DNA from: an uncultured virus (IMG/VR IMGVR_UViG_3300007169_000009)
Lineage: Duplodnaviria; Heunggongvirae; Uroviricota; Caudoviricetes
Length of the DNA stretch: 64,000 nucleotides
Reading direction: 5' to 3' (one strand)
IMG/VR virus record: IMGVR_UViG_3300007169_000009
The position numbers and the translations under genes were made by a program. The notes under the pieces are model-generated. The model was not told the origin of the DNA. It searched no databases and saw nothing but the letters and a program-made list of their open reading frames with translations. Position 1 is the first letter of the stretch. Each line of letters begins with the position of its first letter. Shown here in pieces: positions 646 through 53,005 of this stretch.

Positions 646-990
646 ATGGCACAGCCATGCTCAAACATGAATCAAAACGAAAAAGCACTTTTCAACGAAT
701 TAAAAAGTGAAATTGCTACGCACAAAAAAACTCTTGCAATTGCCGGTTTTTTCCTATCTTGCGCTTTTGCGGCAATTCCGGCCTCAGTTTTAATTGGAAG
801 CAAGCTCGCTGGAATTGCTGCAATTTGCTGGATTTTTTCTTTTCTTTTGACGTGCAGCGCGATTGACGCAACCAAGAAAATGGAGCAGGCAACTGAAAAG
901 TTGGATGCCCTAAAGCTTACGGTAGCGATGGAAGAGCAGCAAAATCCAGTCCTTCAGTCTAATTCATTTTTCTCTATTGGAATGAATTGA
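646..990 (+). CDS. hypothetical membrane protein
   Basis: 114 aa, two hydrophobic segments; stop overlaps next start. Confidence 0.65.
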   Translation: MAQPCSNMNQNEKALFNELKSEIATHKKTLAIAGFFLSCAFAAIPASVLIGSKLAGIAAICWIFSFLLTCSAIDATKKMEQATEKLDALKLTVAMEEQQNPVLQSNSFFSIGMN

Positions 991-1187
991 TCATGGAGTC
1001 AATTGAACTTACCACTGCTCAGCGGTTTGAAATTGAAAAAATGAGCAGAGCCATTGATGGGACAAGTGACGTTCAGGTTCTCAGGGATCTGTCTAAGCAG
1101 CTGCTCGTCGCCTGGATGACCCAGAAAGCGGCTAGCATTTGGGCCATCAGGCAAAGCGACCCTCGGGGCCGATCATTTAGTGGCTGA
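987..1187 (+). CDS. nblA: NblA-like phycobilisome degradation adaptor
   Basis: 66 aa; ELTTAQRFEIEKMSRAID...LRDLSKQLLVAWMTQKAA resembles the NblA pattern L(S/T)xEQxF followed by two helices. Confidence 0.7.
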   Translation: MIMESIELTTAQRFEIEKMSRAIDGTSDVQVLRDLSKQLLVAWMTQKAASIWAIRQSDPRGRSFSG

Positions 1188-1341
1188 ATACTGGGTTACG
1201 CTGCAGATTGACCCTCAAAGAACGCGGGATGTTCGCGTGAGCGGGGAGGACTATGCAGATGTGGTCAAAAAATACAAAACAAAGGACGGCTTCAAGGTGA
1301 TAGCCGTTAGGCCTTGCGAGCGCCCTGAGCAGGCTGCTTAA
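1180..1341 (+). CDS. small hypothetical protein (53 aa, not in ORF track)
   Basis: GTG start overlapping the end of nblA; fills the gap to terL. Confidence 0.5.
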   Translation: MAEYWVTLQIDPQRTRDVRVSGEDYADVVKKYKTKDGFKVIAVRPCERPEQAA

Positions 1342-1346
1342 GAAAA

Positions 1347-2750
1347 ATGCCAGCTCGATCCAGGTCCGCAGCCTACGCTGACCGCGCATCGGCAAAAAGC
1401 CTCGGCCTACTTTCTGATGCCTCTTTGTTGCAGCGCTTAAGGAAGCGGTCAAACTCAACCTTTGATGTTAAAAGCGCTGAAATAAAGATGATTCAAGACC
1501 TGCTGCCATATCAGCGGGATTTTGTCACAGACTTTGAGCACAAGTATGTTGGTTTTTGCGGAGGATACGGCTCCGGCAAAACGCATTCTCTTGTCATTAA
1601 ACAATTGCTGCTTTGTTTTAGGTCGCAAGGTTTTACGCATTTATTTCTTGAGCCAACTATTCCGCTCATTGATGACGTTGCGTTGCCAAAGTGGAACGAA
1701 CTTCTTGAAAAATATGGAATTCCGCATACATTTAAGGTATCTCCTAGGCCCGTTTTCAAGCTTTTTTTACCAGGAGGAGAAACGCCAGTCCTGTTGCGCT
1801 CAATGGAGAACTATGAGCGCCTGATTGGTGTCAACGCCGCAAGCATTGCGTCTGACGAAACTGATACCACCAGGGCCGAACTCGCCGAAAAGGCAATGAT
1901 CAGGCTGCAGGGTCGCGTTCGCGTTGGAAATTGCCCGCAAATTGTGGCTGGATCTACGCCAGAGGGCTATGGCTGGATGTATAACTTTTTTGAGGAACAA
2001 AAGGCAGACAACAAAAGACTTTATCGTGGAAAGTCGGAAGACAATCCATATCTTGACCCCGGCTTTGTAGAAGACCTTAAAACAAAGTATCACCCGCAGC
2101 TCATTAAAGCGTATCTCAATGGGGAATTTGTTAATCTTGAGTCTGCAACTGTATTTTATGAGTTTGACAGGGCTAAGCACACGACCGGAGTATTCCTCCC
2201 AGAGCCGAACGAACGAATTGTATTTGGGGCAGACTTTAACATTGGTCAGTGCTATTCGGTCTATGGTGTGGTAAGGCCAGGGCCAAAGGGACAGGAGCTT
2301 CACTGCTTTGCAGAGGCAAAAGTATCAGACACATTTTCGCTGGTTGCGCATCTGCAAAAAAGCTATCCTCGTCACTTGGCAAGCGGAAAAATAACTTGCT
2401 ATCCAGATGCCAGTGGCGCTCATGATTCCACTTCTTCAACGCAAAGCGATCATGAAATTCTCAGGGCCGCTGGTGTTCAGGTTGTGACGGAGCGCAGGAA
2501 TCCGCCAATTGCGGAAACGCTTGCGCACGCGAATGTTCACATGCACCGCAATCTAATTTTCTTCAATCCAGCATCGTGCCCTGAAACGATTAGTGCGATG
2601 GAGCGATGGAGTTATGACCCAAAAACTTTGAAGCCTGCAAAGGGTGGTGCGACGGATTACTCCCACCCCGGCGATGGCGTCAGATACTTGGCCTGGCACG
2701 TATTCCCGCGTGCTGGCGCAAGAGCTGGCCATGGCGGCCGTTGGCGATGA
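1347..2750 (+). CDS. terL: terminase large subunit
   Basis: Walker A GGYGSGKT, Walker B SIASDE, STPEG coupling motif, nuclease motifs GADFN, PDASG, HPGDGVRY. Confidence 0.95.
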   Translation: MPARSRSAAYADRASAKSLGLLSDASLLQRLRKRSNSTFDVKSAEIKMIQDLLPYQRDFVTDFEHKYVGFCGGYGSGKTHSLVIKQLLLCFRSQGFTHLFLEPTIPLIDDVALPKWNELLEKYGIPHTFKVSPRPVFKLFLPGGETPVLLRSMENYERLIGVNAASIASDETDTTRAELAEKAMIRLQGRVRVGNCPQIVAGSTPEGYGWMYNFFEEQKADNKRLYRGKSEDNPYLDPGFVEDLKTKYHPQLIKAYLNGEFVNLESATVFYEFDRAKHTTGVFLPEPNERIVFGADFNIGQCYSVYGVVRPGPKGQELHCFAEAKVSDTFSLVAHLQKSYPRHLASGKITCYPDASGAHDSTSSTQSDHEILRAAGVQVVTERRNPPIAETLAHANVHMHRNLIFFNPASCPETISAMERWSYDPKTLKPAKGGATDYSHPGDGVRYLAWHVFPRAGARAGHGGRWR

Positions 2751-2886
2751 TATTATGTTGAAGCACCAGCGGCTTTGCTTTTGGCGGGCACGACGACAGC
2801 CGCTGAAACTTCGTTTGAGGGCCTTGGAGTGATCCAGGGCCTTTGTGCTTTGGCGCTAGCATGAATTGGTCTGGCGGTGTGGTTCC

Positions 2887-4575
2887 GTGCCTTCGATCGA
2901 CGTTCCGAACTCAATCATCCTGGGCGCTGATGACCTGCCGATTCCATTTGAGCGACGGGAGCCGGAAACTGAAAATGTTTACGCTGAAGTTACTGGAGTA
3001 GATTCATATTCTATTGACCAGGCAGAGCAACTTGCAAGAATTTTGCCAATCCGCTTTTGCGTCTTGCCGGAGTTCTACCTGGATGATGCGATTGATCAGT
3101 ATATTCCAAAAGATTTTCAGGAACAAGACGGCAGCTACAATGTTCGGAAGACTCGCGCAATTACGTGCTTTGAGCCTTTTTATTCCCACTATGTAGACAT
3201 TATTGTTGGTACTGCGCTGCGAAAAGGCATCATTCTTCCCCAAGAAATGCCGCAGGAATGGGAAGATTTCTTCAAAAATGTTAATCTTGAAGGAAAGTCT
3301 ATCACATCTTTTGCAAAAATGCTCTTCACCGAGGCCATCAACGGTGGGGTCGCTGGGTTGTGGGCTGATTATCCAACAGTCACAAGCCAAAACAAAGCCG
3401 AACAGTCAAAAATGAGGCTTCGCCCTTACTTTACAATTATTAAAACAGAAGATATACTTGACTGTCGCTATGAAAATGGCTCAGTAACAATCGCTGGCGT
3501 AACTTCATACGAAACAAAGGTCACGTATCTGAGAATCAAATCTGAAATTAGAAGGGCAAGCGTTGACAATGAGCACTTTGAAGAAGTGGTTCCGACAGTG
3601 ATTGTCTATGATATTGAGAACTATCGCGATGAAAGCGGAAAATCAGCAAAAAGAACTCGCGTTAGAATTTACGAAAAATCCGCCAATAGCGATTCGTATA
3701 TTTTGCCAGCCGAAAATACTAAGTATCTTACTATTGACTATATTCCATTTAGCCCTTGCTACGGAGGCAAAGAAGAATCCTTTTGCCGCGCAAGGCCGCT
3801 TCTCTTTGATATTGCAAGACAGAATTTGCGCCACTGGGCAACTGTCTGCGACCTCAATGAAACAATCCATTTTAACGCAGCACCGTATCTCACTGGCACT
3901 GGCGTAAGTCCTGATACGGAAATTTTTTCTGGTTCCGGCCGAAGCCTGTTTAGCGCGAATCCTGACGCAAAGTTTGGCATTCTGTCCTCAGGTATGCAAG
4001 GCGCCGAAACCACGCTAAAAGAGCTTGCTAGAATTGAAAGTTCGATGGACCGCTTGGCAGCAATTGCCATGACGCCCGGCAAGAGTCAGGTTGAGTCTGG
4101 TTTTGCAAAGCTTCTCGATAGATCGCAGTCCGACTCCCAGCTTGCCGTATTGATTGGATCGCTTCAAGATTGCATCAATAGGGCGCTTTGGTACGCATCT
4201 GGCTACAGAACCGACCAATACCCAAAAATTGAAGTTGCTATCAGCAAAAACTTTATTCCTGCCAAGCTGCACAGTCAGCAAGTTTTGGCTCTCAGCTCTC
4301 TTTACAAAGATTCAGAGGTGATTCCAGTTCAGACTTTCCTTGAAATGCTTGAGGCTGGAGAAATGTTTGAGGGAATCCACGGGTTTAGTGTTAAAGCGTT
4401 GCTGGATAAAATGGGCTTGACTGGCGCAGAGCGCAGGTCTGAAATCGTCAAACCAGCCAGCGGCGCATCGGATACAAACCAGCGGCTTTACATCAAAAAC
4501 ACGATGGAGGAGGCCGCTGGCCGCTCCCTGGAGGGTGAGCCGTCCGAGTCCTCAGTTGAAATGGCCGAATCTTGA
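2887..4575 (+). CDS. portal protein (DUF4055-like)
   Basis: Follows terL, ~560 aa, LRPYF and PLLFDIA motifs; GTG 2887 chosen as start because it lies downstream of a promoter-like motif. Confidence 0.85.
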   Translation: MPSIDVPNSIILGADDLPIPFERREPETENVYAEVTGVDSYSIDQAEQLARILPIRFCVLPEFYLDDAIDQYIPKDFQEQDGSYNVRKTRAITCFEPFYSHYVDIIVGTALRKGIILPQEMPQEWEDFFKNVNLEGKSITSFAKMLFTEAINGGVAGLWADYPTVTSQNKAEQSKMRLRPYFTIIKTEDILDCRYENGSVTIAGVTSYETKVTYLRIKSEIRRASVDNEHFEEVVPTVIVYDIENYRDESGKSAKRTRVRIYEKSANSDSYILPAENTKYLTIDYIPFSPCYGGKEESFCRARPLLFDIARQNLRHWATVCDLNETIHFNAAPYLTGTGVSPDTEIFSGSGRSLFSANPDAKFGILSSGMQGAETTLKELARIESSMDRLAAIAMTPGKSQVESGFAKLLDRSQSDSQLAVLIGSLQDCINRALWYASGYRTDQYPKIEVAISKNFIPAKLHSQQVLALSSLYKDSEVIPVQTFLEMLEAGEMFEGIHGFSVKALLDKMGLTGAERRSEIVKPASGASDTNQRLYIKNTMEEAAGRSLEGEPSESSVEMAES

Positions 4576-5511: not shown

Positions 5512-5543
5512 AAAACCCTCTCCTTCGCTGGGGAGGGTTTTTT
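5512..5543 (+). terminator. intrinsic terminator
   Basis: AAAACCCTCTCC-loop-GGGAGGGTTTTTT hairpin after the scaffold gene. Confidence 0.75.
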
Positions 5544-5579
5544 CTTGGCTAGCCTTGGGTTGCGCCGCGTTCTCCCCAA

Positions 5580-5738: not shown

Positions 5739-5905
5739 AAAGCAAAAACGTACCAACAAACAAGGCTCTCTATGCGCGAGTGAAGGCTGAAGCCAAAAGA
5801 CGCTTTAAGGTCTACCCAAGTGCCTATGCTAATGGCTGGCTCGTTAAAGAGTACAAGAAACGAGGCGGAAAGTATCAGGTAGTAAGGGAGAAAAAAAATG
5901 GCTAA
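5735..5905 (+). CDS. small basic protein (56 aa, not in ORF track)
   Basis: GTGA overlap; [36 protein letters not shown]. Confidence 0.75.
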
Positions 5906-6155
5906 AAGTGGCAGAGGAGGCCTTGGCAGGTGGTTTGCTGAAAAATGGATTGACATTAAAACTGGCAAGCCATGTGGAAGAAAAACCGGCGAAAAACGCA
6001 AGGGGTATCCCGCTTGCAGGCCTTCTAAGCGAGTTTCTTCTGAAACACCAAAAACAGCTTCTGAGTTATCCTCAAAAGAAAAAAGCAAATTCAAAAAAGA
6101 GAAGACAAGTTCAAAAAAAATTGGCTATCAGCATAAACGCAGAAAATCTCGGTAA
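5898..6155 (+). CDS. small basic protein, DUF5872-like
   Basis: GLGRWFAEKWID...CGR...YPACRPSKRVS.ETPKT motif. Confidence 0.7.
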   Translation: MAKSGRGGLGRWFAEKWIDIKTGKPCGRKTGEKRKGYPACRPSKRVSSETPKTASELSSKEKSKFKKEKTSSKKIGYQHKRRKSR

Positions 6156-7412: not shown

Positions 7413-7450
7413 TCTTGCATCAATCTGCTTGTGTTTGATTGCAAGTGATG

Positions 7451-7475
7451 GCCGGGCGGGAAGCCCGGCTTTTTT
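7451..7475 (+). terminator. intrinsic terminator
   Basis: GCCGGGC-GGGAA-GCCCGGC-TTTTTT. Confidence 0.85.
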
Positions 7476-7479
7476 CTTG

Positions 7480-7487
7480 GCTATCAT
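7480..7487 (+). promoter_or_regulatory. putative late promoter -10 (GCTATCAT) of major capsid gene
   Basis: One instance of the GCTAnnnT motif recurring upstream of structural genes. Confidence 0.55.
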
Positions 7488-7588: not shown

Positions 7589-8572
7589 ATGCTTCTCGCA
7601 GGCGTTCCCCTTATTCCCGAGCTGTTTCTTGACTATCAGCAAGAAGAGATCCGCGACAAGAACGCGCTGGTCACTTCGGGCCTGATGGTCACGAATGCCG
7701 CAATTCAGGCCGAATTCGCCAAAGGCGGCAAGACCGTTGACCTGCCCTTCTATGGCGACCTGACCGGCGATTCGGAGATCGACTCCGACACCGTGGCTTC
7801 CGTTCCTTCGGAAATCTCTGGTGATATGCAGGTTGGCGTTCGCAACATGCGCCGCAAGTCCTGGAAGTCCAGCGATCTCGCCGCTGACCTGTCCGGTTCC
7901 GATCCCTCCCAGGCTATCGCCCGGAGCACTGGTCGTTACTGGATCCGGGACATGCAGGTTGTGGCCCGGAGCATCCTGAACGGTATCTTCGGCACCGGCG
8001 GCCCCCTGGCCAGCAGCCACTCTGTCGGCGGCACCACCTCCCAGCTTTCGCAGGGCCTGATGGTGGATGGCATCGCCAAGCTTGGTGACGCTGGCGACGA
8101 GCTGACCGGCGTGATGATGCACTCGGCCATCTATTACGCGCTGATGAAGCTGGACCTGATTGTTCCCGCTTCCAATACCTCTCAGATCGACAGCCGCCTT
8201 TCGGCTGAGGCTCTGGAGCAGGGCACCTATCTTGGCCGCCCCGTGTTTAAGGATGACCGACTGCCGTTCGACACCGGCGCTGGCCCCGCCGGCCAGACCG
8301 TGTATCAGACCTTCTTCTTCGGTCCCGGCGCTTTTGCTTATGCAACTGCTCCCGCCAAGAATCCGGTCGAAACCGATCGCGACAAGTTCCTGGGCATTGA
8401 TTTTCTGATCAATCGCACCCACCACCTTGTCCACCCGAACGGTCTGAGCTGGAAGGGCAACGCCGCCGCTGCAGCCCCCAGCAACGCCGAGCTTGCTACC
8501 CCCGGCAACTGGGTGAAAGTGTTTGACGATGACCGGAACATTCGGATCACCCGGATGCGCTGCTACATCTGA
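7589..8572 (+). CDS. major capsid protein
   Basis: 327 aa; GGKTVDLPF, DLAADLSGSDP, MHS..Y..L, TYLGRPV..DD, HPNG motifs; strong codon bias. Confidence 0.92.
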   Translation: MLLAGVPLIPELFLDYQQEEIRDKNALVTSGLMVTNAAIQAEFAKGGKTVDLPFYGDLTGDSEIDSDTVASVPSEISGDMQVGVRNMRRKSWKSSDLAADLSGSDPSQAIARSTGRYWIRDMQVVARSILNGIFGTGGPLASSHSVGGTTSQLSQGLMVDGIAKLGDAGDELTGVMMHSAIYYALMKLDLIVPASNTSQIDSRLSAEALEQGTYLGRPVFKDDRLPFDTGAGPAGQTVYQTFFFGPGAFAYATAPAKNPVETDRDKFLGIDFLINRTHHLVHPNGLSWKGNAAAAAPSNAELATPGNWVKVFDDDRNIRITRMRCYI

Positions 8573-41823: not shown

Positions 41824-41828
41824 GTTAG

Positions 41829-43454: not shown

Positions 43455-43686
43455 TCTAGGCTCGGGGCAGAACGTAGGCTTGCATAGCGGCCGATGTTGC
43501 TCTCTCCTCAGCGCTGACAGGACTACTGCTCGGGCCGTGCGGTAGGCTGGACAAAGCAACTCCATGATCTGCTTTATCTACCAGATGCGTTAAGCAAGGA
43601 GTCTTGATTGAGGTGGCGTGGTCCCAGGGTTCTCATTGTGCCCGCTGTGGCGCCATCAAGAGCAATTGTTCGTAAGCCCCCGCGCA

Positions 43687-44403: not shown

Positions 44404-44860
44404 TCCAGGGCTGTCTGGTGCCATCGCCCTGCTGGAAGGCCGAGTTCTTGTAGATGTCTTCGATATGCCAACTATAGAAACATTGTCCGGCAAGAAAAAA
44501 AAGAGAAGGATCTCGCCTGAGCTTTTAACTGTTGAGCTTGAGAAGTATATTGGAACGATTGACAGAGCCTTCATTGAAGACGTACATGCCATGCCAGGCC
44601 AGGGCGTGTCAAGCATGTTTGCGTTTGGAGAAGCTTTTGGCCTTGCTCGCGGCGTTCTGGCTGGCCTGAAAATTCCGACGCGCATGGTTTCCCCTGTTAC
44701 GTGGAAGCGTGCCATGAGGCTGCCTCAGGGCAAGGACGCATCCCGAGGGATGGCGGCTCAGCTCTGGCCGGCCAACGCAGCCAGTTTCAAGCGTCAGCGT
44801 GACGATGGCCGCGCAGAGGCGGCCTTGATCGCCTTCTGGGGATCCATGCAAGCGATCTGA
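44369..44860 (+). CDS. RuvC-like Holliday junction resolvase
   Basis: LGIDPGLSGA, IEDV..MPGQGVSS.F.FG, V.P..WK, DGRAEA.LIA. Confidence 0.88.
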   Translation: MQSQSIRTLGIDPGLSGAIALLEGRVLVDVFDMPTIETLSGKKKKRRISPELLTVELEKYIGTIDRAFIEDVHAMPGQGVSSMFAFGEAFGLARGVLAGLKIPTRMVSPVTWKRAMRLPQGKDASRGMAAQLWPANAASFKRQRDDGRAEAALIAFWGSMQAI

Positions 44861-45006
44861 TTTCGTGACTTTCAGCCGGCCTGCCCTTGATCGCCTTGCT
44901 CAACGGCGATTTTTCACCTATACTGCCTTGGTCGTCAACGAGCTTCGCCTTGCCCCGCCGGAAGAACGCTGCTGATGCAGCAGAGCAACCCTCCACCACC
45001 GATCAA

Positions 45007-45516
45007 ATGACCGAATCCGTCGCCGAGAAGAAAGTCCCCGCCAAGACCAGCAAGAAGGGCACGCCTGTCAGTGCTGCCGAGCTTCAGGCAACCGTCTCTC
45101 GTATGCAGGGCGCGACCGCTGACAAGCTCGCTCAGGCTTGCGGTTACTACACCGAAACCACCACTACCGCTACCGGCGAAGTTGAAGTCCGCGTAACGGC
45201 GCAGGATCAGCAGAACTTCATGATCGCCCTGGTCGCTTCGCAGGGCCTCGCTATCGCGCCCCCGGCTCGCAGCAGCCGGCGCACCAGCCGCCAGCCAATC
45301 ATCAAAATTGGCAAGACCGGCAACATTGTCGTTGGTGGCCGCTATACCACCATTGCCGGCTTTGAGTTCGGCGAAGACATGGATTCCCGTGTTCGCGTTG
45401 AAGCGGTTGCCGGCAAAATCACCATCACCGCCGCCTCCCCTGACGAGTACGCATCCAGCGAAGACGATTCGGACCTGGACGGCATCGAAGAGGAAGAAAG
45501 CGAACTGGACGACTGA
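45007..45516 (+). CDS. cyanobacterial AbrB-like (cyAbrB) regulator
   Basis: LA.ACGYY...NF..AL...QG...R...I.KTGNIVVG..YT...G matches the cyAbrB pattern CGYY...F..AL..A.G...GNLLIG.AYT. Confidence 0.75.
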   Translation: MTESVAEKKVPAKTSKKGTPVSAAELQATVSRMQGATADKLAQACGYYTETTTTATGEVEVRVTAQDQQNFMIALVASQGLAIAPPARSSRRTSRQPIIKIGKTGNIVVGGRYTTIAGFEFGEDMDSRVRVEAVAGKITITAASPDEYASSEDDSDLDGIEEEESELDD

Positions 45517-45538
45517 TATTCGCATCAGTCGAGTTATC

Positions 45539-45563
45539 GCCCCAGCGATCCTGGGGCTTTTTT
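45539..45563 (+). terminator. intrinsic terminator
   Basis: GCCCCAG-CGATC-CTGGGGC-TTTTTT. Confidence 0.85.
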
Positions 45564-45577
45564 ATTGCCAAAAATCA

Positions 45578-46012
45578 ATGAACCACCAGCAACAAGCGAT
45601 TCAATTCCGCGAAATCTACGGTCAGCCGATTCTGTCCAGATGTTTTGATCGCACCATCAAGGGCCTCAAGCAAGACTTAGACTACAAAACACTCGATATG
45701 CAGCTTGGGTGCATAACAGAGGAAAGCCGTGAGCTTGTAGAGGCTGTTGCAGAGTGGCGATCAAGCTACAAAGGCGAAGAAAGTGCTGCTCTTGCTGCGA
45801 AGGCCCACATGCTTAAAGAGCTGGCCGACCTTGCCTATGTCTGCTTTCAGCTTGCAGCTTTTTTGGGAATTGACCTTGACGAAGCTCTTGATCGAGTACA
45901 TCAGTCGAACATGAGCAAGCTTGATGAAGACGGTGCGCCTATTTTCAATGAGGAAGGAAAGGTGATGAAGGGGCCTAACTATAAGGAGCCTGACCTGCTC
46001 GATCTCGTTTAG
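45578..46012 (+). CDS. MazG-like/NTP pyrophosphohydrolase
   Basis: EE..EL, KELADL.YV, RVH.SNMSKL..DG...GKV.KGPNY..P.L. Confidence 0.88.
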   Translation: MNHQQQAIQFREIYGQPILSRCFDRTIKGLKQDLDYKTLDMQLGCITEESRELVEAVAEWRSSYKGEESAALAAKAHMLKELADLAYVCFQLAAFLGIDLDEALDRVHQSNMSKLDEDGAPIFNEEGKVMKGPNYKEPDLLDLV

Positions 46013-46100
46013 CTGCTATAAGAAACCCTTATATGCAAGTCGGTTGACGTGCAAGCTCAGCCGACTTATTGTTTTGATTGTGACTGCTTGCTTTTTGGCC

Positions 46101-46319
46101 ATGGCTATTCCACATTCAGATGCTCGCGCCCGCTTCATTGCAGCTGGCGCAGAGCGTGCAGAGCGGGCGAGTCGCAGCGCTACCCGTGACGCAATTTCTC
46201 GTGGCAAAACGCCTGAAGTGCGCCATAGCCTTGCCGCAGGCATTGAGAGGGTGCTTGATGACGGCTTTACAATTGACGAAATTCGCGCTATTGTAGAGCG
46301 GCTTAAGCAGCCTCAATGA
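46101..46319 (+). CDS. hypothetical protein
   Basis: ORF coupled to next gene. Confidence 0.55.
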   Translation: MAIPHSDARARFIAAGAERAERASRSATRDAISRGKTPEVRHSLAAGIERVLDDGFTIDEIRAIVERLKQPQ

Positions 46320-46552
46320 AAAAGGCCGAAGACTATGGGCAGCTTGATGAAGCAATTTGCCGGTGGATTGCAGCAAATTCAATCGGCCATCCAGCCAATA
46401 GCAGCGATCTTAACCAAATCGCCGCCGCTTTTACCGCTGGTGGCGAGCCTTGGCGCTTGATTGACCGCCGGATGCAGGCAATGCGTCGTTCCGGTCGCAT
46501 TGAATACATTGGCCGCCGCAAGGACAGGCATGGATGGATTGCAGTCTTTTAG
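46316..46552 (+). CDS. hypothetical (winged-helix-like) protein
   Basis: R.IDRR.QA.R..G.I.Y...W. Confidence 0.6.
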   Translation: MKKAEDYGQLDEAICRWIAANSIGHPANSSDLNQIAAAFTAGGEPWRLIDRRMQAMRRSGRIEYIGRRKDRHGWIAVF

Positions 46553-46569
46553 CTATTTAACAACTGACA

Positions 46570-46965
46570 ATGACTAATCAACAACACCCCATCACCCCGC
46601 CAGAGGATGTAATCGAAGTGTTGCGCAGCCAAGCTCCGCAATGCGACGTTGATGCTGGCGTGAACAAGGAGCGCGAGACGCAGCTTGTCATTGCCGCCTA
46701 TCGCGCTGGCGCTGATTATGAGCTTGAGGAGATCCTTTTGTATCCGGGCGAGGAGCCCGAAGACCGCCGGTATTTTGACAATGTTCCCGCCGCGAATATC
46801 AGAGCCTGGCGCCGCCCCAAGCCGCCGAGCTTGGCGGAGGAGGCACAGCGCATTCTGGTGGAGAACGGCGCCACATTGGACGGTCGCGTTGAGCTAGACC
46901 CCGAGGATGTCAGCATCATCGGCGCCGCCCTTGAGCGCCTGCAGGAGCTGGAGAGCAATGGCTGA
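46570..46965 (+). CDS. cassette family A, copy 1
   Basis: HPITPP...GAD.ELE...RRPKPPSLAE.A...I.AALERL.ELE. Confidence 0.7.
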   Translation: MTNQQHPITPPEDVIEVLRSQAPQCDVDAGVNKERETQLVIAAYRAGADYELEEILLYPGEEPEDRRYFDNVPAANIRAWRRPKPPSLAEEAQRILVENGATLDGRVELDPEDVSIIGAALERLQELESNG

Positions 46966-47191
46966 ATTGAGCCCCGCTGCGCAGGCGGTGCTGTGTGCTG
47001 CAGCTCGCCGTTACGCAATTGATGGTGATCTTCAAGACAGCATCGCCGCCGCCCTGTGTGCTGCTGCGGATCAGCTTGCGCAAGTTCCAATCGTCATTGG
47101 CGAGCCTTTGAAGGGAAACATCGCCAAGGACGCGGCAGTGGTTCACGTTGCCGACCTCTTTGCCATCGCCACCGAACTGAAGAACCAATGA
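46958..47191 (+). CDS. cassette family B, copy 1
   Basis: ELSPAAQAVL...AAAL.AAADQ...AIATEL. Confidence 0.7.
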   Translation: MAELSPAAQAVLCAAARRYAIDGDLQDSIAAALCAAADQLAQVPIVIGEPLKGNIAKDAAVVHVADLFAIATELKNQ

Positions 47192-47580
47192 CTGAACAAC
47201 ACCCGATCACCCCACCGCCAGAGGAGCTGGTGCAGGAGTGGAGCGACGAATGGTATCGGCTCAAGGTCAAGATCAACACTGGAATCCCAGAGTACGTCGC
47301 CACCCAAGCCGCCCGCTGGGGCGCTGATCAAGAGCTGGAGGCGTGCTGTGAGTGGTTGCGCGAGGCTCGGAATCACGGGTTTGGCTATGACATGGGAAGG
47401 ATTCTTGCTGACAATCTCCGCGCCGCTCGCCGCCCTAAACCGCCGAGCTTGGCGGAGCAGGCACTGGCTGAGTTGGATCAAATCCCGACTCACGACAACG
47501 AAGGTCGAACGGTAGGTGGTGATGCCTCCATCATCCGCGCCGCCCTGGAGCGCCTGCGGGAGCTGGAGAACAATGACTGA
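47188..47580 (+). CDS. cassette family A, copy 2
   Basis: HPITPP...WGADQELEACCEWL...RRPKPPSLAEQA. Confidence 0.7.
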   Translation: MTEQHPITPPPEELVQEWSDEWYRLKVKINTGIPEYVATQAARWGADQELEACCEWLREARNHGFGYDMGRILADNLRAARRPKPPSLAEQALAELDQIPTHDNEGRTVGGDASIIRAALERLRELENND

Positions 47581-47788
47581 ATTGAGCCCCGCTGCACAGG
47601 CCGTTTGGAATGCCGCCTGGGTAAATACCCCTGTTCAATGTGGCGACATTGAAGGCACGCGCCGAGCCCAAGTCGCCGCCGCCCTTCGTGCTGTTGTGCA
47701 AAATAGCATTTGCATTGATGATTATGGGGACGAATGCATAGATCCAAATGACATTCTCAAAATCGTTGAAGAATTGGAGCAATTCTGA
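47573..47788 (+). CDS. cassette family B, copy 2
   Basis: ELSPAAQAVW...AAALRA. Confidence 0.7.
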   Translation: MTELSPAAQAVWNAAWVNTPVQCGDIEGTRRAQVAAALRAVVQNSICIDDYGDECIDPNDILKIVEELEQF

Positions 47789-48003
47789 TGACTGAACTCT
47801 CACATCAAGCGCAGGCGGTGCTGGATGCCTACATGAATAACTGTGGCTGGCTAGATGGTCCATTAGATAGAGATTATCGCTGTGTTGCCGCCGTTCTGCG
47901 TGCTGCTGCGGATCAGGTGGTGCCTGGAGACGGATCTCGTCGCGCCAATGAGATCCGTCTCGAATTCCTCGCCATCGCCACCGAACTGAAGAACCACCAA
48001 TGA
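47788..48003 (+). CDS. cassette family B, copy 3
   Basis: ELSHQAQAVL...AAVLRAAADQ...AIATEL. Confidence 0.7.
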   Translation: MTELSHQAQAVLDAYMNNCGWLDGPLDRDYRCVAAVLRAAADQVVPGDGSRRANEIRLEFLAIATELKNHQ

Positions 48004-48692
48004 CCATCCTCACCAAGAACACTGACAAATTGCGCAGTGAAGTGGCAGCACACGTTGCTGCAGATTCCATTGTTCAAGGTATTTACTGGGACAAAGGAAG
48101 CAAGCGTGGCTGTTTCATTGGCTGCCTTGCCAAGCGGGATGATCCCTCACTCAACGAGGCAACTTACGGGTTGCCCGTGATGGTTCAGCGCATTGCCGAA
48201 AACATTTTTGAGGCACTACCTGCTAATGAAGCCAAGGCATTTTTTGCAGCTTTGCCTGATGCGGTTGGATGCGATGGCAAGGATCTAACCAGAGTTGGCT
48301 GGCAGTTTCTTGCTGCTGAGCTGCGTTGTTTGCCCGCGCAGTCTGCTGAACTTCAGGCTGTCATTGATACAGTGATTGCAGGTATGGACCTACTTGCCAG
48401 TGGGCAAGAGTGGTCTAGGGCTGCTGCTGCTCGGTCTGCTGCCAATGCTGCTACTGGTGTTGCTTGGTGGGCTTTTGGTGCTGCTGATGCTGCTGATAAT
48501 GCTGCTGCTGCTGCTGAGCTGCGTTGTTTGCCCGCGCAGTCTGCTGAACTTCAGGCTGCCGCTGCTGCTCGGGCTGCTGCTAAGGCTGCTATTGCTGCTG
48601 TTGATGCTGATGCTGCTGCTGCTCGCTTGCGACAGCGTGACCTGCTGCTTCGCCTTATCTCTGAAGCCCCTGTTGTGGAGAACCACCAATGA
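48000..48692 (+). CDS. hypothetical protein with poly-Ala tract
   Basis: H..AD.I.QG.YW...GC.IGC N-terminus; GCT repeats. Confidence 0.7.
   Translation: MTILTKNTDKLRSEVAAHVAADSIVQGIYWDKGSKRGCFIGCLAKRDDPSLNEATYGLPVMVQRIAENIFEALPANEAKAFFAALPDAVGCDGKDLTRVGWQFLAAELRCLPAQSAELQAVIDTVIAGMDLLASGQEWSRAAAARSAANAATGVAWWAFGAADAADNAAAAAELRCLPAQSAELQAAAAARAAAKAAIAAVDADAAAARLRQRDLLLRLISEAPVVENHQ
48311..48558 (+). repeat. 50-bp perfect direct repeat (48311-48360 and 48509-48558)
   Basis: TGCTGCTGAGCTGCGTTGTTTGCCCGCGCAGTCTGCTGAACTTCAGGCTG occurs twice. Confidence 0.9.
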
Positions 48693-48907
48693 GCACTGAC
48701 ATCAAAACCTATAAGGTCGATGCTGCCTTTGCGGAGCTGCGCGGTTTTGATCACTTCGCCAAGCCACACGACTTCATTGAGGTCAGCCTGTGGCGCAACG
48801 GCGAGGGTTTTGATGCACACCTGAGCACTCACGCCGATCAAACTATTCGCCTGACCTGGGGCGAGTTCAAGGCCCTCAAGAAACTCATCAAGGAGCTAGA
48901 CAAGTGA
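48689..48907 (+). CDS. hypothetical protein
   Basis: DFIEVSLW.NGEGFD motif. Confidence 0.7.
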   Translation: MSTDIKTYKVDAAFAELRGFDHFAKPHDFIEVSLWRNGEGFDAHLSTHADQTIRLTWGEFKALKKLIKELDK

Positions 48908-49932
48908 CCAACAACTTTCGCGCCTTGTGCGCTGATCTGATTGAGGCAGTCTTGTCCGATGACAGCCACATCGACTGCACAGAAATCGCTCGCCGCGCCC
49001 GCGCCGCCCTGGCAGATGAACCGACTGTGCCCGAGGTAGTCGGCAGCGACTGGCAGCCGTGCGTCAAACTTCCGATCACCGTCCATGTGCGCGAGCAGCG
49101 CCCAGGTGAGCAGCACGTCTCAACCCGAGAGGGAATTACGCCTGTGCAGTCAGATGACTTGATCATGCTCGGCGTAGCTGGCGAGGAATACCCGATCGGT
49201 CGCGAGTTGTTCCAACGCACCTACCGCATGGGGAGCGCAGATGAACCGGCTGTGCCCGAGGGCAGGGATCCGGCCGCTGTCACGAAGCAGCCTAGTGATG
49301 CCGAACAGGTTTTGAGGCTTGCCGCAATCATCCGCGAGGTTGACGGCAACCACAGCAAAGGCGCTGCAGCCTTGGCCGAATCAATCCTTGATCACCCAGG
49401 CTTCCGCGTTGTTCTTGCCAGCTGGGGAACTTCTAATTTGACGCAAACTAAGCTGTCGCCCGCCGCTGGAGAGGTGGTGGGATTGGTCAAGATGCTAAAG
49501 GGCATTGCCTATTGGAGACTCCATGGCACCGATAAACCTACCCCGTTTGACATCCGCCAAGCAGCTCGACTCACCCGCGCCGCCGATCTGCTGCAGCGGC
49601 AGGTGGTGGTGCCGGTTCCCGTATCGGAGTGGCTGCCGGAGCCAAGTACAAAAGTGCTCGCGCACTACTTCAACGACCTAGGGCGCAAACGAACAATCTG
49701 CGCGATTTGGGTTCCCGCCAAGTCTCGCAGTGGTGACATTGGCGACGACGACGATTTCACGGAGTACGACGAAGAAGACGGCAAGTTCTACTGGCCCGAG
49801 GGCTGGTACGAAACAATCGAAAACTGGGACGACCTTGGCTACGTCAAGGTTGTCGAGGGCGAAGTGATTTACTGGCAACCGCTTCCGAAGTGGCACGCCC
49901 ACGCCCTGCCGCTGCCGGAGGTGGGCGAATGA
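48904..49932 (+). CDS. mosaic multi-domain hypothetical protein
   Basis: FRALCA.L N-terminus, T.EG...D.I..GV.GE.YP domain, DUF551-like PVSE.LP...V.YWQPLP C-terminus. Confidence 0.7.
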   Translation: MTNNFRALCADLIEAVLSDDSHIDCTEIARRARAALADEPTVPEVVGSDWQPCVKLPITVHVREQRPGEQHVSTREGITPVQSDDLIMLGVAGEEYPIGRELFQRTYRMGSADEPAVPEGRDPAAVTKQPSDAEQVLRLAAIIREVDGNHSKGAAALAESILDHPGFRVVLASWGTSNLTQTKLSPAAGEVVGLVKMLKGIAYWRLHGTDKPTPFDIRQAARLTRAADLLQRQVVVPVPVSEWLPEPSTKVLAHYFNDLGRKRTICAIWVPAKSRSGDIGDDDDFTEYDEEDGKFYWPEGWYETIENWDDLGYVKVVEGEVIYWQPLPKWHAHALPLPEVGE

Positions 49933-50018
49933 GCCTCAACGAGTTCGGCGTCCTCGCCGTAGCTTATGTGGTGGTGTGCCTGCTTAGCTTGTGGGTAGCG
50001 TCCAGAATCCTGCCATGA
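49929..50018 (+). CDS. 29-aa membrane peptide
   Basis: ATGA overlaps both neighbours; hydrophobic. Confidence 0.5.
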   Translation: MSLNEFGVLAVAYVVVCLLSLWVASRILP

Positions 50019-50209
50019 CGGAGCTGATCGACCGGATAAAGCGCGACGGCGGCACCATCGAGGTGCTGCAAGATGAACGCGGGATGACCTATCACCGCGT
50101 CTGTGCGCATGGCGTCTGTCGATCGTGCGAGGATCGCTGGCAGGCTGAAATGTACCTTGATCAAATGCTACGCTCCACGTCCTCTACTCCATCTTCTTAT
50201 GGTGCTTGA
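50015..50209 (+). CDS. hypothetical protein
   Basis: DGG.IE.L...Y.RVC..G.CR..ED.WQA. Confidence 0.65.
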   Translation: MTELIDRIKRDGGTIEVLQDERGMTYHRVCAHGVCRSCEDRWQAEMYLDQMLRSTSSTPSSYGA

Positions 50210-50924
50210 TTCTCGTTTCCGGGTTGCGTTGATCGCCGCTACACCTAATCCGCAACAGTGCATCTACGCCGCGATGCACCAGGACTACGCCGAGACGTTT
50301 GTAGTTTATGAGCAGTTGCCGGATGAAACCGTATGCGGCCATACGATCGTCCGCAAGTTGCTTGCTGGTGAACGTGGCCACTATGGCCCACTGGAGCACC
50401 CGCAGATCACGTTCAATGTCGGCTGGTTTCCGCATAGCGTGATGCAACAGGCGCGGACGCATCGCGTTGGTGTAAGTTTTGATGTTCAAAGTATGCGTTA
50501 CACAGGAGACAGAATCTGCAAAGCAGCCGCTGGGGAGCTAGAGCTGGAGGAGGTCTTTTACCTGCGTCCCGCCGGATACTATTCTGATAGAAATGGCAAA
50601 AAATATCAATACTCAGAGCATCAAAGAAGCAAGGATCTTGATTTATGTCAAGAAGCGGCCAGCAGATACTCTGATCTGATTCTTGGCGGCTTTGCGGAAG
50701 AGCACGCTAGGGGGATTTTGCCCTTTGACTATCGCCAGCACTTTGTAGTGAGCTTTTCGCTGCGAGCATTCTTGCATTTTATGGATTTACGTGCCAAGCT
50801 TGATGCTCAAGAAGAAATCCGCGTCTTGTGCGATTTGATGTGGCCCCATGCGCAGGCCTGGGTGCCGGAAATCGCCGCATGGTATGAGAAAAACCGCCTG
50901 CGCAAAGCGCGTCTTGCGCCGTGA
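50199..50924 (+). CDS. thyX: FAD-dependent thymidylate synthase
   Basis: GHYGPLEH, QQARTHRVGVSFDVQSMRY, EHARGILP, HFMDLR...AQ.EIR. Confidence 0.95.
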   Translation: MVLDSRFRVALIAATPNPQQCIYAAMHQDYAETFVVYEQLPDETVCGHTIVRKLLAGERGHYGPLEHPQITFNVGWFPHSVMQQARTHRVGVSFDVQSMRYTGDRICKAAAGELELEEVFYLRPAGYYSDRNGKKYQYSEHQRSKDLDLCQEAASRYSDLILGGFAEEHARGILPFDYRQHFVVSFSLRAFLHFMDLRAKLDAQEEIRVLCDLMWPHAQAWVPEIAAWYEKNRLRKARLAP

Positions 50925-51724
50925 GCGGAATGGCAATCTGTCCTAATTGCAGCTCTGATGCAACCAAAGTAATTGAGTCCACCCAGCTGCATGATGGGGG
51001 CCGCCGTCGTCGCCATTTATGCCATAGCTGCGGCTTTAGATGGTCAACTTGGGCTGGCGCCCCTCCGCGCAGAGGCCGCCTCCCAAATTCAAGACCCGGC
51101 AGAAAAAGCAAGCCTCCGCTCACGGAAGATCAGGTAAGGCTGATTCTCCTGTCTCCTCTTAGCTCGTCAAAGCTTGCCCGCCAGCTGAATAGGCCGGTTG
51201 AAACTGTTGCTGGCGTTCGCCGTGGACAGTTTCACAAAAATACACTGCCAGAGCTGCCGAGGCGCAAGCCTGAGCCTCGGCGGACCTATCAAAAAGCATT
51301 GCCAGAAGGCCTCCCATCGTGTAGGCTGTGTAAGCACTGGAGTAACAGCAAGTGTGGCATGGGTTTCCCGGACCCAATTTACGAAGGGCCTGGATTCGCA
51401 GCTGAATGCAGCGTCTATGCGCCATTGGCCGCTCGGCCCGCCAATCAGCCAACGCAAAAAAATCATGGCGAGGCGGCGAAAGCGCCTGAGCCCCTGATTC
51501 TTGCGCTTTACAGGAATCACTATGTATCGCCCGATGATTGGTGGTTCAGCTGCCCAAGGGCGGAAGATGCCACCAGCGATGAATGCTCCTGCGGGGCGGG
51601 CGCTCACAATGCAAGGCTCGATGCCCTGGTGGCCGCCCTTGGCAGCTCGGAACCAGAGCTGGCAAAGCTCAATGCTGTAATCGAAAAATTCCTCAAACCA
51701 GTAAAAGAAAATGGCACTAGATGA
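50921..51724 (+). CDS. NrdR-like zinc-ribbon regulator with further Cys-rich regions
   Basis: CPNC...KVIES...RRRR..C..CG.RWST; central HTH-like segment. Confidence 0.65.
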   Translation: MSGMAICPNCSSDATKVIESTQLHDGGRRRRHLCHSCGFRWSTWAGAPPRRGRLPNSRPGRKSKPPLTEDQVRLILLSPLSSSKLARQLNRPVETVAGVRRGQFHKNTLPELPRRKPEPRRTYQKALPEGLPSCRLCKHWSNSKCGMGFPDPIYEGPGFAAECSVYAPLAARPANQPTQKNHGEAAKAPEPLILALYRNHYVSPDDWWFSCPRAEDATSDECSCGAGAHNARLDALVAALGSSEPELAKLNAVIEKFLKPVKENGTR

Positions 51725-51941
51725 TGACTTTCGTTTTGGCAGATTTGTGGGCATTGCCATTACAATTTGTTTTTGGCTTTTCTTGCTTATCAGCTTGCGC
51801 AAGAAGCTGATTAAGTGGTTGCTTGATGCAGCCATGCAGGCGGCTGGCGCAAGCCAGTCCACAGTGGCGAGGATGCCCGCATTGGCGGCTCAAATTGTCG
51901 GTGAGCACGCCGAGTTGCTGCAATGGAGCCAGGCAAAATGA
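51711..51941 (+). CDS. hypothetical membrane protein
   Basis: N-terminal hydrophobic segment. Confidence 0.45.
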   Translation: MALDDDFRFGRFVGIAITICFWLFLLISLRKKLIKWLLDAAMQAAGASQSTVARMPALAAQIVGEHAELLQWSQAK

Positions 51942-52246
51942 TGGAAAAACATCGCCACAGGCTTTGGCTCAACATCATGGAAGACCTTGGGCCGCCAGAG
52001 GGGTGCATTGTTCCAGCCTGGCTTGTGTGTGTCCATGCGATGCTTTTTCCTTTGCAGGGATTGCGCTGGATCATTGATAGACACATGGGCTATGATCCAC
52101 TTCGCATGGTGTGGACAATACACGGAATTGACTATTCTGATCGCATCTTCCACCGCCTTGCTATTGCTGATGGAGTATTGTATCGGTTTGTTACTGTGAA
52201 CAAGGTTTTGACCGTTGAAATTATTGCACAGCCGCCAAAGGAGTAA
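51938..52246 (+). CDS. hypothetical protein
   Basis: Operon-coupled ORF. Confidence 0.55.
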   Translation: MMEKHRHRLWLNIMEDLGPPEGCIVPAWLVCVHAMLFPLQGLRWIIDRHMGYDPLRMVWTIHGIDYSDRIFHRLAIADGVLYRFVTVNKVLTVEIIAQPPKE

Positions 52247-52248
52247 AA

Positions 52249-52566
52249 ATGAAGATAACGAGTGGATTGTTTAGTTTTTCTAGGGCAGAAGTTGTTCGCG
52301 CCAGCCTGCTGCTGAGACCTACAATTGGCAGCTCCATTTGGATGACGCTTAACTCACATAGGCTTTTGATGTTTTTGCCTTTGAATTGGAGAGTCTTAAA
52401 TAGGGAGGTCTTACTGCGTCTTGGCTATCAATTCACTGTCATTGGCATTGAATGGGAGTCAATTCAACAGGTTGAAATTGCTTTGCTTTATTTTCAAAGG
52501 CTGGGTCTAGCAGAAATTTGGGAAGACACATCAAATGGCAAGATCATGGTTCGGCGGAAATCCTAG
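52249..52566 (+). CDS. hypothetical protein
   Basis: AGGAG RBS. Confidence 0.55.
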   Translation: MKITSGLFSFSRAEVVRASLLLRPTIGSSIWMTLNSHRLLMFLPLNWRVLNREVLLRLGYQFTVIGIEWESIQQVEIALLYFQRLGLAEIWEDTSNGKIMVRRKS

Positions 52567-52570
52567 TCCA

Positions 52571-53005
52571 ATGCCAAATCAAATTTATTCTTCAACTGGA
52601 AGAAAAATTCCATCTAAAATGCAGTGCCCTAAGTGCAGATTTTTATTTTCAAAAGTTATTTCAACCAATGAAGACGAATCGGGAGTAACGCTCCGCAAGC
52701 GTCGCTGCAAACAATGTGAGCACGTATTTTTTACAGCTCAAGAGCCAGAATACATGGTAAAAGGCGAAAACATTGCGTGGAGGAATGGCAAACTGTCTTT
52801 GCGCGATAATTCTGCCCCACTCACAGGTCTTGGGATTTCCACCCAGCCTTGTCACGCTTTAATGAGGGCTGGTTACAAAACTATCAATCAAGTTGTAGGA
52901 TTAAGCGATGATCAAATACTTGCTATTAGAGGGGTTGGCGTGAAGTTCTTGCTTGAAATTCGCACTGCTATTCGTAGGTGGAAGGACCGCCCGGAAGACT
53001 TTTAG
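52571..53005 (+). CDS. NrdR-like Zn ribbon fused to RNAP alpha-CTD-like domain
   Basis: CPKC...KVIST...RKRRC..C...F.T plus LGISTQPCHALMRAGYKTINQVVGLSDDQILAIRGVGVKFLLEI. Confidence 0.7.
   Translation: MPNQIYSSTGRKIPSKMQCPKCRFLFSKVISTNEDESGVTLRKRRCKQCEHVFFTAQEPEYMVKGENIAWRNGKLSLRDNSAPLTGLGISTQPCHALMRAGYKTINQVVGLSDDQILAIRGVGVKFLLEIRTAIRRWKDRPEDF

Follow-up and report, generated by a model that had tools for sequence, protein, structure and literature searches.

The window analysed here is the whole 64,000-nucleotide (nt) stretch of IMG/VR record IMGVR_UViG_3300007169_000009, which comes from an uncultured Caudoviricetes virus. Its subject is a set of host-like regulators encoded in the window: two sigma factors, a protein related to the cyanobacterial regulator cyAbrB, and a zinc ribbon fused to a domain that resembles the C-terminal domain of the RNA polymerase alpha subunit (alpha-CTD). 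A sequence-only reading of the window had listed these, together with a proposed NblA, as five regulators belonging to one take-over kit. Four of the five could be placed in families and the NblA could not; the observation is confirmed in part, and there is partial support for the interpretation built on it. The genes concerned, including one zinc-ribbon gene outside the original set, are the following (ORF, open reading frame).

34200–35087, minus strand: sigma A, a 295-residue group-1/2-type sigma-70 factor (Pfam, TIGR02997)
35285–36199, minus strand: sigma B, a 304-residue group-1/2-type sigma-70 factor (Pfam, TIGR02997)
44950–45516, plus strand: cyAbrB-like predicted DNA-binding protein, 188 residues (169 from 45007), PF14250 at family level
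50921–51724, plus strand: second NrdR-type zinc-ribbon protein, 267 residues (PF22811, 36.5 bits), outside the set of the sequence-only reading
52571–53005, plus strand: 144-residue fusion of an NrdR-type zinc ribbon (residues ~17–55) and an alpha-CTD-like helix-hairpin-helix domain (~79–140)
993–1187, plus strand: 64-residue two-helix protein (ORF 987–1187, ATG at 993), proposed as NblA, placed in no family

Sigma factors and promoter-like signals

Both proposed sigma genes proved to be what they had been taken for. Regions 1.2, 2 and 3 are present in order and above the Pfam cut-offs in sigma A and sigma B alike; region 4 scores 18.6 bits in sigma A and 19.3 bits in sigma B (E ~1e-3), below the cut-off of 24.1. 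The top NCBIfam model for both proteins is TIGR02997, a cyanobacterial RpoD subfamily, with scores of 242.6 bits for sigma A and 219.3 bits for sigma B that lie below the model cut-off of 384.5, and both align over their full length to this model and to solved SigA chains. The best PDB matches of sigma B are the cyanobacterial SigA entries 8h3v and 9dvs; those of sigma A are actinobacterial SigA/HrdB, followed by cyanobacterial SigA.

The two proteins are 37% identical to each other. Orthologues of sigma B with 42–52% identity are found in three related viral records, G004, G008 (100% complete) and G013 (88% complete), and sigma B can be regarded as the clade-conserved sigma. Within the clade defined by the terminase, a close match to sigma A (100%) occurs only in G001, the sigma genes of the other records being 33–40% identical to it. 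Otherwise the nearest relative of sigma A (54% identity) is carried by a 28.9-kb phage-like contig (L055) binned in a metagenome-assembled genome (MAG). A small ORF directly upstream of sigma A has a homologue directly upstream of the sigma A-type gene on that contig (53% identity, E 3e-19 by tblastn), so that sigma A and this ORF look like an acquired, accessory two-gene cassette. The first ORF of the leftward sigma operon has a 47%-identical homologue adjoining sigma B in G004, and no family was matched for it in Pfam, NCBIfam or PHROGs. These ORFs and the promoter-like sequences nearby are arranged as follows.

35053–35247, minus strand: 64-residue ORF directly upstream of sigma A, without Pfam family
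36308–36619, minus strand: 103-residue ORF (from the ORF list), first gene of the leftward sigma operon
36620–36860: divergent control region with one consensus-like sigma-70 promoter per strand
36803–36831, plus strand: TTGACA-17-TAAGAT, 10-of-12 match, ahead of the rightward operon
36650–36622, minus strand: TTGACC-17-TATCAT, 10-of-12 match, ahead of the leftward operon
35313–35284, minus strand: 10-of-12 sigma-70 promoter ahead of the sigma A cassette
42948–42976, plus strand: 10-of-12 sigma-70 promoter ahead of the gene for the single-stranded DNA-binding protein (SSB)
36861–37025, plus strand: 54-residue ORF, first gene of the rightward operon, weak PF07878

Four of the five 10-of-12 sigma-70 matches in 34100–54000 are correctly oriented ahead of operons or genes. 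The total of sigma-70-like matches in this interval is only mildly above shuffled sequence (23 versus 14.4 ± 4.6). The 54-residue ORF that opens the rightward operon may encode a further small ribbon-helix-helix regulator, its sole match being PF07878 (RHH_5) at E 0.005 and 16.9 bits, below the cut-off.

That cyanosiphoviruses can carry sigma genes is no new finding. In passages of PMC6157547, rpoD is mentioned for S-LBS1, S-CBS1 and S-CBS3, and the records of the cultured cyanosiphoviruses S-CBS1, S-CBS3 and KBS-S-2A contain annotated sigma factors with 35–44% tblastn identity to those of the window. The window phage has two tandem sigmas, whereas each of these three records has one matching place, and none of the cultured cyanosiphoviruses with a sigma carries a cyAbrB-like gene or the full fusion.

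Late-type signals were sought in the motif GCTAnnnT, which the sequence-only reading had described as recurring before structural genes and which was counted here as GCTANNNT. The motif is enriched between genes: of its 55 plus-strand copies, 11 lie in the 7.4% of the sequence that is intergenic (4,706 nt; binomial p=0.002), a figure tempered by the fact that the intergenic set follows our own choice of ORFs, and 8 of these 11 are in the structural module. Three copies stand 10–13 nt behind strong terminator-like hairpins, and a fourth site follows conserved hairpins between the terminase and portal genes.

5518–5555, plus strand: terminator-like hairpin (5518–5537), T-run and GCTAGCCT at 5548; candidate late promoter cassette
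7450–7487, plus strand: terminator-like hairpin (7450–7470), T-run and GCTATCAT at 7480, upstream of the major capsid gene
13804–13846, plus strand: terminator-like hairpin (13804–13826), T-run and GCTAGACT at 13839, at the start of the tape-measure gene
2751–2865, plus strand: terminase–portal intergenic region, conserved hairpins followed by GCTAGCAT at 2855

The composite of T-run and motif yields 12 overlapping matches at 5 distinct sites, all on the plus strand, versus 4.9 ± 2.8 in shuffles. The terminase–portal region was compared in 26 of 31 terminase loci, five being left out for a truncated terminase match. In 25 of the 26, GCTANNNT is found no more than 200 nt from the terminase stop, and in 13 it lies at an offset of 101–107 from the stop, right behind the conserved hairpin; the other 13 loci have T-A-n-n-n-T with variable inner bases at the post-hairpin place, as judged by eye. 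Many of the 26 loci are near-identical to each other, which lowers the independent support below the count. As an observation apart, two hairpins are conserved in this region, in the window (2751–2865) as in the 26 relatives, and their sequences differ from one relative to another in a compensating manner; the region matched no Rfam family.

In primary sigma factors a stretch of region 4.2 reads the −35 element through its individual residues. This stretch, conserved among solved primary sigmas, differs from them in the four proteins of the sigma B clade and also among those four; sigma A is nearer to the primary-sigma stretch, yet also altered. The lack of the conserved stretch in the sigma B clade fits promoters that are independent of a −35. 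Consistently, the alignment of ten motif sites has no upstream column above 0.75 bit, that is, no conserved −35; the sites were selected by the motif itself, so the alignment shows that absence and nothing further. A consistent change in region 2.4 of sigma B was also considered as the explanation for the GC before TAnnnT, and was rejected as the orthologues differ at the position.

From the observed domain identities, gene order, motif positions and co-occurrence of the genes we infer which form of the polymerase would read which promoter, the timing, and any effect on host genes. A sigma-based switch from early to late transcription is plausible and fits the promoter layout, and we lean slightly towards a joint mechanism that combines host-sigma early operons, phage-sigma late elements, accessory regulators and a tethered alpha-CTD-like module. 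RNA polymerase with the host primary sigma would read both consensus promoters in 36620–36860; leftward transcription would reach the sigma operon, and rightward transcription would take in the genes for replication, for the cyAbrB-like protein and for the zinc ribbons. Next, a phage sigma (probably sigma B) would direct the host core polymerase to TAnnnT elements without a conserved −35; within the structural module these elements, often GCTAnnnT, follow closely on terminator hairpins. The cyAbrB-like and zinc-ribbon proteins would be DNA-binding accessory regulators, and in the fusion the zinc ribbon would read DNA while the alpha-CTD-like domain offers a tethered contact surface.

Besides the reservations on the intergenic set, the aligned sites and the near-identical loci, several results weigh against this mechanism. 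GCTANNNT is below chance overall, with 86 copies on both strands versus 102.8 ± 9.5 in shuffles. The modest excess of sigma-70-like matches noted above belongs here as well, as does a further count of promoter-like matches (14 versus 8.2 ± 3.3 in shuffles), and region 2.4 of the sigma B orthologues has no consistent change. One metatranscriptome library contains contigs over parts of 34001–52458, in which the cyAbrB-like gene is included and both sigma genes are partly covered, with no contig listed over 52571–53005; these contigs may stem from DNA, and neither starts nor strand, level or timing can be taken from them.

It is possible, and in our view unlikely, that GCTAnnnT is no promoter element and instead a terminator-proximal by-product, an RNA-processing site or a chance word. 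Such an origin would agree with the missing overall enrichment, with copies that lie too near predicted start codons (2855 against 2866, for example), with the 12 of 26 relatives whose closest copy to the terminase stop has a different offset, and with the modest excess of the T-run composite over shuffles. It agrees poorly with the intergenic enrichment, with the strict plus-strand placement of the composite sites and with the T-A-n-n-n-T that, as judged by eye, all 26 relatives keep behind the hairpin.

A tailed cyAbrB-like family paired with sigma genes

The cyAbrB-like gene had been placed at 45007–45516. The protein called in the window has 188 residues, and a PRRK-type N-terminus is present in 26 of 36 homologues of the alignment (hand count); the start is therefore probably 44950 rather than 45007. 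By family the assignment stood: PF14250 is matched by 27 of 37 aligned members at E≤0.01 (best E 4.4e-7), and the family profile aligns to a canonical 116-residue cyAbrB-type protein with an hhalign probability of 89% (E 2.4e-6, 105 columns, residues 4–108). This alignment is collinear and spans both the N-terminal region and the AbrB-like domain. This canonical comparator (80.8 bits on PF14250) is encoded on C149 (locus L063), a phage-like contig of a MAG, and not in a cyanobacterial genome. The individual score did not stand, and it tells against the assignment: the window protein alone reaches 18.6–19.2 bits on PF14250 versus a cut-off of 25, and most phage members of the family, the window's included, are below that cut-off. 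PF14250 was found in one of 14 control genomes, that of Synechococcus elongatus. The nearest Atlas clusters (scores 0.86–0.88) are one viral cluster, in which 39% of members have PF14250, and two cyanobacterial AbrB regulator clusters with 95–100%. Overall, the AbrB-like assignment is supported at the level of the family.

The family has the same domain order as the host cyAbrB regulators (PF14250), to which cyAbrB1 and cyAbrB2 of Synechocystis belong: the AbrB-like domain is C-terminal and comes after an N-terminal region. It differs from host cyAbrB by an insertion in the N-terminal half, by the PRRK-type N-terminus, which is basic, and by an acidic C-terminal tail of ~40 residues, which is conserved. 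In a large protein collection 76 homologues were found, on contigs of up to 85 kb, all of them unnamed or "hypothetical protein". The genome collection yielded no cellular relatives of the family, and a profile search of the PDB gave a chance match only. None of 50,697 deposited phage records contains the cyAbrB-like gene, and the canonical form gave one 47-residue partial match among them, in P-TIM68. Literature searches pairing phage or cyanophage with AbrB or cyAbrB returned incidental mentions only, with no title or abstract joining both. The phage cyAbrB family thus appears undescribed.

The association of this gene with sigma genes was examined in two sets of contigs. The first comprises 21 terminase-related contigs, mostly fragments, of which 5 have a sigma and 4 a cyAbrB-like gene; the full fusion is found in one of them (G001), and G016 has the alpha-CTD part only. 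G008 (complete) and G013 possess sigma B, the cyAbrB-like gene and the 64-residue protein, and contain neither a zinc ribbon nor an alpha-CTD-like domain; this speaks against the joint mechanism in its full form and indicates that those parts are dispensable. The second set comprises the 32 contigs of at least 25 kb among 72 cyAbrB-carrying IMG/VR contigs.

Sigma region 2: 29 of 32, a figure that covers cyAbrB-carrying contigs alone; all 5 of those at least 90% complete
NrdR-type zinc ribbon (PF22811): 20 of 32 (17 above cut-off); 4 of the 5
Alpha-CTD-like domain (PF03118): 7 of 32 (6 above cut-off); 0 of the 5

Two phage-like contigs from a MAG conform to the same pattern, C113 with a sigma, a cyAbrB-like gene and a zinc ribbon, and C149 with a canonical cyAbrB, a sigma and, next to the sigma, a zinc ribbon. 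The association of sigma and cyAbrB is real and recurs across a wider group of uncultured cyanosiphoviruses. Zinc ribbons are frequent and alpha-CTD-like modules occasional companions of the sigma B/cyAbrB pair, whereas sigma A and the fused form are accessory features seen only here and in the near-identical contig G001. There is no fixed five-gene kit. As to the source of the two MAG contigs, the MAG concerned (G022) is labelled a freshwater alphaproteobacterium, and at least two of its contigs (C113, C149) carry phage terminase, portal, sigma and cyAbrB genes; they are probably mis-binned cyanophage contigs (loci L003, L055, L059–L061 and L063).

Another role for the cyAbrB-like protein is conceivable and, we think, less probable than that of an accessory regulator of transcription: a nucleoid-associated protein, or an accessory of replication or recombination, on phage DNA, with the acidic tail recruiting partners as an SSB tail does. 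Its gene lies in the replication module, between a RuvC-like resolvase (phrog_1770) and MazG, and host cyAbrB2 is termed nucleoid-associated in the title of PMC11368403. The acidic C-terminus of the family ends in a hydrophobic residue, and the phage SSB likewise has an acidic tail with hydrophobic residues, but this resemblance is loose and was made out by eye. The tight pairing with sigma (29/32) points to transcription instead. In another phage contig a canonical cyAbrB lies between the terminase and the portal, so gene position is uninformative across phages. Two observations belong beside these: the SSB (43032–43454) and the cyAbrB-like protein (44950–45516) both have acidic tails with hydrophobic final residues, and the canonical 116-residue cyAbrB is encoded at 4152–4502 of L063 (C149), flanked by the large terminase and the portal of that phage-like contig.

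Zinc ribbons and alpha-CTD-like modules

The predicted fusion of a zinc ribbon and an alpha-CTD was borne out. Its start at 52571 was set by alignment of homologues (a seven-member family), and both domains are above their Pfam cut-offs, PF22811 with 29.3 bits (cut-off 27.2) and PF03118 with 29.9 bits (cut-off 23.8). The AlphaFold model, built from seven sequences, has a mean predicted local distance difference test score (pLDDT) of 75.6, with 82–92 in the alpha-CTD part. In Foldseek searches with the model, the predicted N-terminal half matches NrdR with a probability of 0.94–0.98, NrdR chains being the top matches, and the C-terminal half superposes on solved alpha-CTDs with a root-mean-square deviation of 0.8–2.1 Å over 56–59 residues. 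The alpha-CTD structures matched are those of E. coli, Thermus, Streptomyces, Mycobacterium and Synechococcus. The protein is a fusion of an NrdR-type zinc ribbon with an alpha-CTD fold.

It is neither RpoA nor NrdR. With RpoA it shares a PF03118 domain above cut-off and a predicted fold that superposes on the E. coli, Thermus and cyanobacterial alpha-CTDs. It differs in that the N-terminal domain for alpha dimerisation and assembly is absent, its N-terminal half being the zinc ribbon; in that the aligned DNA-contact arginine is missing; and in that its nearest relatives are proteins with 2–7 repeats. With NrdR it shares the N-terminal four-cysteine zinc ribbon (PF22811). Pfam found no ATP-cone in the fusion, whose C-terminal half is alpha-CTD-like. 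The lack of an ATP-cone holds for the zinc-ribbon proteins of the window generally, and in the second of them (50921–51724) the ribbon is joined to a helix-turn-helix-like and cysteine-rich region.

The fused form is very rare. A HMMER search of 1.84 billion representative proteins gave 386 matches at E≤0.001, and among the 150 matches listed two cover both domains, P0006 (85% identity) and P0089 (39%). The other C-terminal matches among those listed are proteins with 2–7 tandem alpha-CTD repeats, some with sigma region 4, and the N-terminal ones are small stand-alone zinc-ribbon proteins. The full-length fusion occurs in IMG/VR only in G001; among deposited phages none has it, the zinc-ribbon half alone being matched in S-SRP02.

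Related modules are arranged in other ways elsewhere. G016 contains an orthologue of the second zinc-ribbon protein (39% identity, E 1e-29) with a stand-alone alpha-CTD-like gene directly after it, and in both G016 and G024 a zinc-ribbon gene is followed by an adjacent, separate alpha-CTD-like gene of 119–128 residues. In G038–G041 and G043 the alpha-CTD-like domain lies in ORFs of 124–164 residues, apart from a zinc ribbon. Phages thus carry alpha-CTD-like modules joined to a zinc ribbon in one protein, next to a zinc-ribbon gene, or on their own, and these modules appear undescribed.

A DNA-contact arginine of the Thermus alpha-CTD, which we take to correspond to the DNA-contact residue R265 of E. 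coli, aligns with a glutamine in the fusion and with Q, G or A in 7 of 7 family members, which makes canonical UP-element binding doubtful. Two stand-alone alpha-CTD-like proteins of 112 residues (L136 and L138, from G040 and G039) both have arginine at the aligned position. The earlier statement that the alpha-CTD sets promoter choice of the RNA polymerase is not established for this domain, because its kin are tandem-repeat proteins other than RpoA and the arginine is missing. Prediction of a complex between sigma A and the fusion gave no answer (score 0.00 in both runs, below the mark and run without controls).

These features could also mean that the alpha-CTD-like domain is a decoy or adaptor and not a reader of DNA, a view we hold to be rather doubtful. 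With the zinc ribbon as anchor, it would capture host activators or sigma region 4, and the effect would be either the shut-off of activator-dependent host promoters or an extra contact for the phage-sigma holoenzyme. The loss of the arginine throughout the fusion family would suit this, as would superposition on alpha-CTDs that were solved with CAP, Spx, RpaA and sigma region 4, and the finding that the fused form and sigma A occur together only in this phage and G001. That co-occurrence, however, rests on essentially one genome; binding is purely putative and deduced from a predicted fold and sequence; the stand-alone phage versions L136 and L138 keep the arginine; and the nearest relatives, the tandem alpha-CTD repeat proteins, have no assigned function. 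The joint mechanism, with a DNA-reading zinc ribbon and a tethered contact surface, is preferred.

The proposed NblA, the host phage and known systems

The 64-residue protein at 993–1187 was not placed as NblA by profile, hhalign, fold or six-frame searches. It resembles NblA in being small and predicted to form a helix-loop-helix, and differs in having no profile or fold-search match to it. Its model (pLDDT 82.5) has helices at residues 8–23 and 27–55, a shape compatible with NblA and also with much else. Pfam NblA was matched by 0 of 11 members of its family at E≤10, the family profile had 0 matches against all PDB sequences at E≤10, and a six-frame search with PF04485 found it in 0 of 21 related contigs, the Synechococcus elongatus control being matched. 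Foldseek gave two unrelated matches at E≤10 and no NblA; VIA-align over 48,161 chains gave generic helical matches (best Z 5.9) with no NblA among the best 50; both fold searches discriminate short helical hairpins poorly. The nearest Atlas clusters are unnamed cyanobacterial proteins of 59–71 residues (scores 0.89–0.90). The protein occurs in 18 of 21 terminase-related contigs but in 4 of 32 cyAbrB-carrying ones, and its gene, confined to the clade defined by the terminase, is a clade marker rather than a member of the regulator set. A role as packaging protein, suggested by the adjoining terminase, was considered and rejected: in relatives the distance between the two genes varies from ~0.2 to 4.8 kb, and nothing else favours such a role.

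Phage nblA genes are already known: the record of Microcystis phage LMM01 annotates nblA, and passages of 10.1101/325100 describe a marine cyanophage lineage carrying NblA. The LMM01 gene was the sole NblA comparator, and tblastn from its product reached only Microcystis phages. That all five genes form one coherent take-over kit, with a staged cascade and an NblA that degrades phycobilisomes to feed virion synthesis, is very improbable: four of the five families are confirmed, the 64-residue protein has the helix-loop-helix shape expected of NblA, its N-terminal helix is paired by hhalign with that of LMM01 NblA (8.6–15.6% probability) and the nearest Atlas cluster with any Pfam family is viral, with NblA in 14% of members (score 0.76, a lead only), but the searches above did not detect NblA, and the genes differ in distribution, with sigma in 29, the zinc ribbon in 20, the alpha-CTD in 7 and the small protein in 4 of the 32 contigs. 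Since the profile searches fail to place the protein as NblA, the idea that antenna proteins are recycled into virions is unsupported; it should not be propagated, and is best dropped unless experiment rescues it.

The phage itself is a siphovirus with lambda-like tail genes, as annotated with Pfam and PHROGs over ~90 ORFs of the window. Its structural module also holds a scaffold gene (Pfam/PHROGs), and its replication and nucleotide genes comprise a replication initiator, DnaB, a Rad52-type recombinase, an exonuclease, SSB, a RuvC-like resolvase, MazG, ThyX and a deoxynucleoside monophosphate (dNMP) kinase.

1347–2750: large terminase (Pfam/PHROGs)
2866–4575: portal (Pfam/PHROGs)
7589–8572: major capsid protein (Pfam/PHROGs)
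13815–22382: tape-measure ORF, 2855 residues, without Pfam family
22382–28044: lambda-like tail proteins gpM, gpL, gpK and gpJ (Pfam/PHROGs)

The large terminase shares 38% identity with its counterparts in KBS-S-2A and S-H1, both siphoviruses of Synechococcus. G001, the viral record nearest to the window, has 68% of sampled words in common with it; at 58.7 kb G001 is rated 65% complete, which implies a full genome of roughly 90 kb, and the window is most of a roughly 90-kb cyanosiphovirus. Among deposited phages no near-identical DNA was found beyond one 37-base match. A 5.9-kb stretch of the window is present at 78% or more of sampled words in 14 DNA runs from 6 studies, which are labelled as estuary, freshwater, aquaculture, aquatic or outdoor metagenomes. 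Rfam and tRNA scans of the window gave no match.

Several further observations concern the wider window. The tape-measure ORF is very long for a ~90-kb genome. A predicted 85-residue ORF in the structural module (5898–6155) matches DUF5872 with 59.8 bits. The ORFs at 46570–46965 and 47056–47580 both match phrog_32006 and are thus tandem paralogues; the surrounding 46–50 kb has many joints and large depth spikes (48008–48674, for example) in metagenome contigs, which suggests a variable or shared segment. In eight relatives (L016, L017, L018, L020, L026, L027, L029 and L032) the terminase match extends over ~1850–1880 nt instead of 1401 nt, which suggests that the gene for the large terminase has an insertion in them, for example an intein or an intron.

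What looks new here is the phage cyAbrB family, its pairing with sigma, the alpha-CTD-like modules and, above all, their fused form. A broader joint reading, to which as a whole we give little credence, would be that a widespread group of uncultured cyanosiphoviruses from estuaries and fresh waters has a modular "polymerase accessory" set of an RpoD-like sigma, a tailed cyAbrB paralogue, NrdR-type zinc ribbons and free alpha-CTD-like modules. Within it, the fusion could stand in for the alpha-CTD or act as its decoy, anchored to DNA and giving upstream contact at −35-less phage-sigma promoters, or could titrate host activators off the host polymerase; the cyAbrB with its acidic tail would poison the global cyAbrB regulators of the host or take their place. 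If true, this would be a new route by which a phage rewires the host polymerase, via a copy of the polymerase's own docking domain. Should the proteins act on the polymerase of the host or on global regulators of cyanobacteria, they would provide a handle on how siphoviruses reprogram abundant picocyanobacteria, and would be compact probes of what the alpha-CTD and cyAbrB do.

Known systems of a related kind are the sigma cascades and alpha-contacting zinc-finger activators of other phages, such as gp28 and gp33/34 of SPO1, gp55 of T4 and Ogr of P2. In those systems a phage sigma or a small zinc protein steers the host core polymerase to late promoters without a normal −35, and the arrangement proposed for the window is alike in this respect. 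It differs in that the window sigmas are full-length, cyanobacterial RpoD-like proteins, known here from sequence alone, and in that the zinc protein bears an alpha-CTD-like domain of its own instead of contacting the alpha-CTD of the host.

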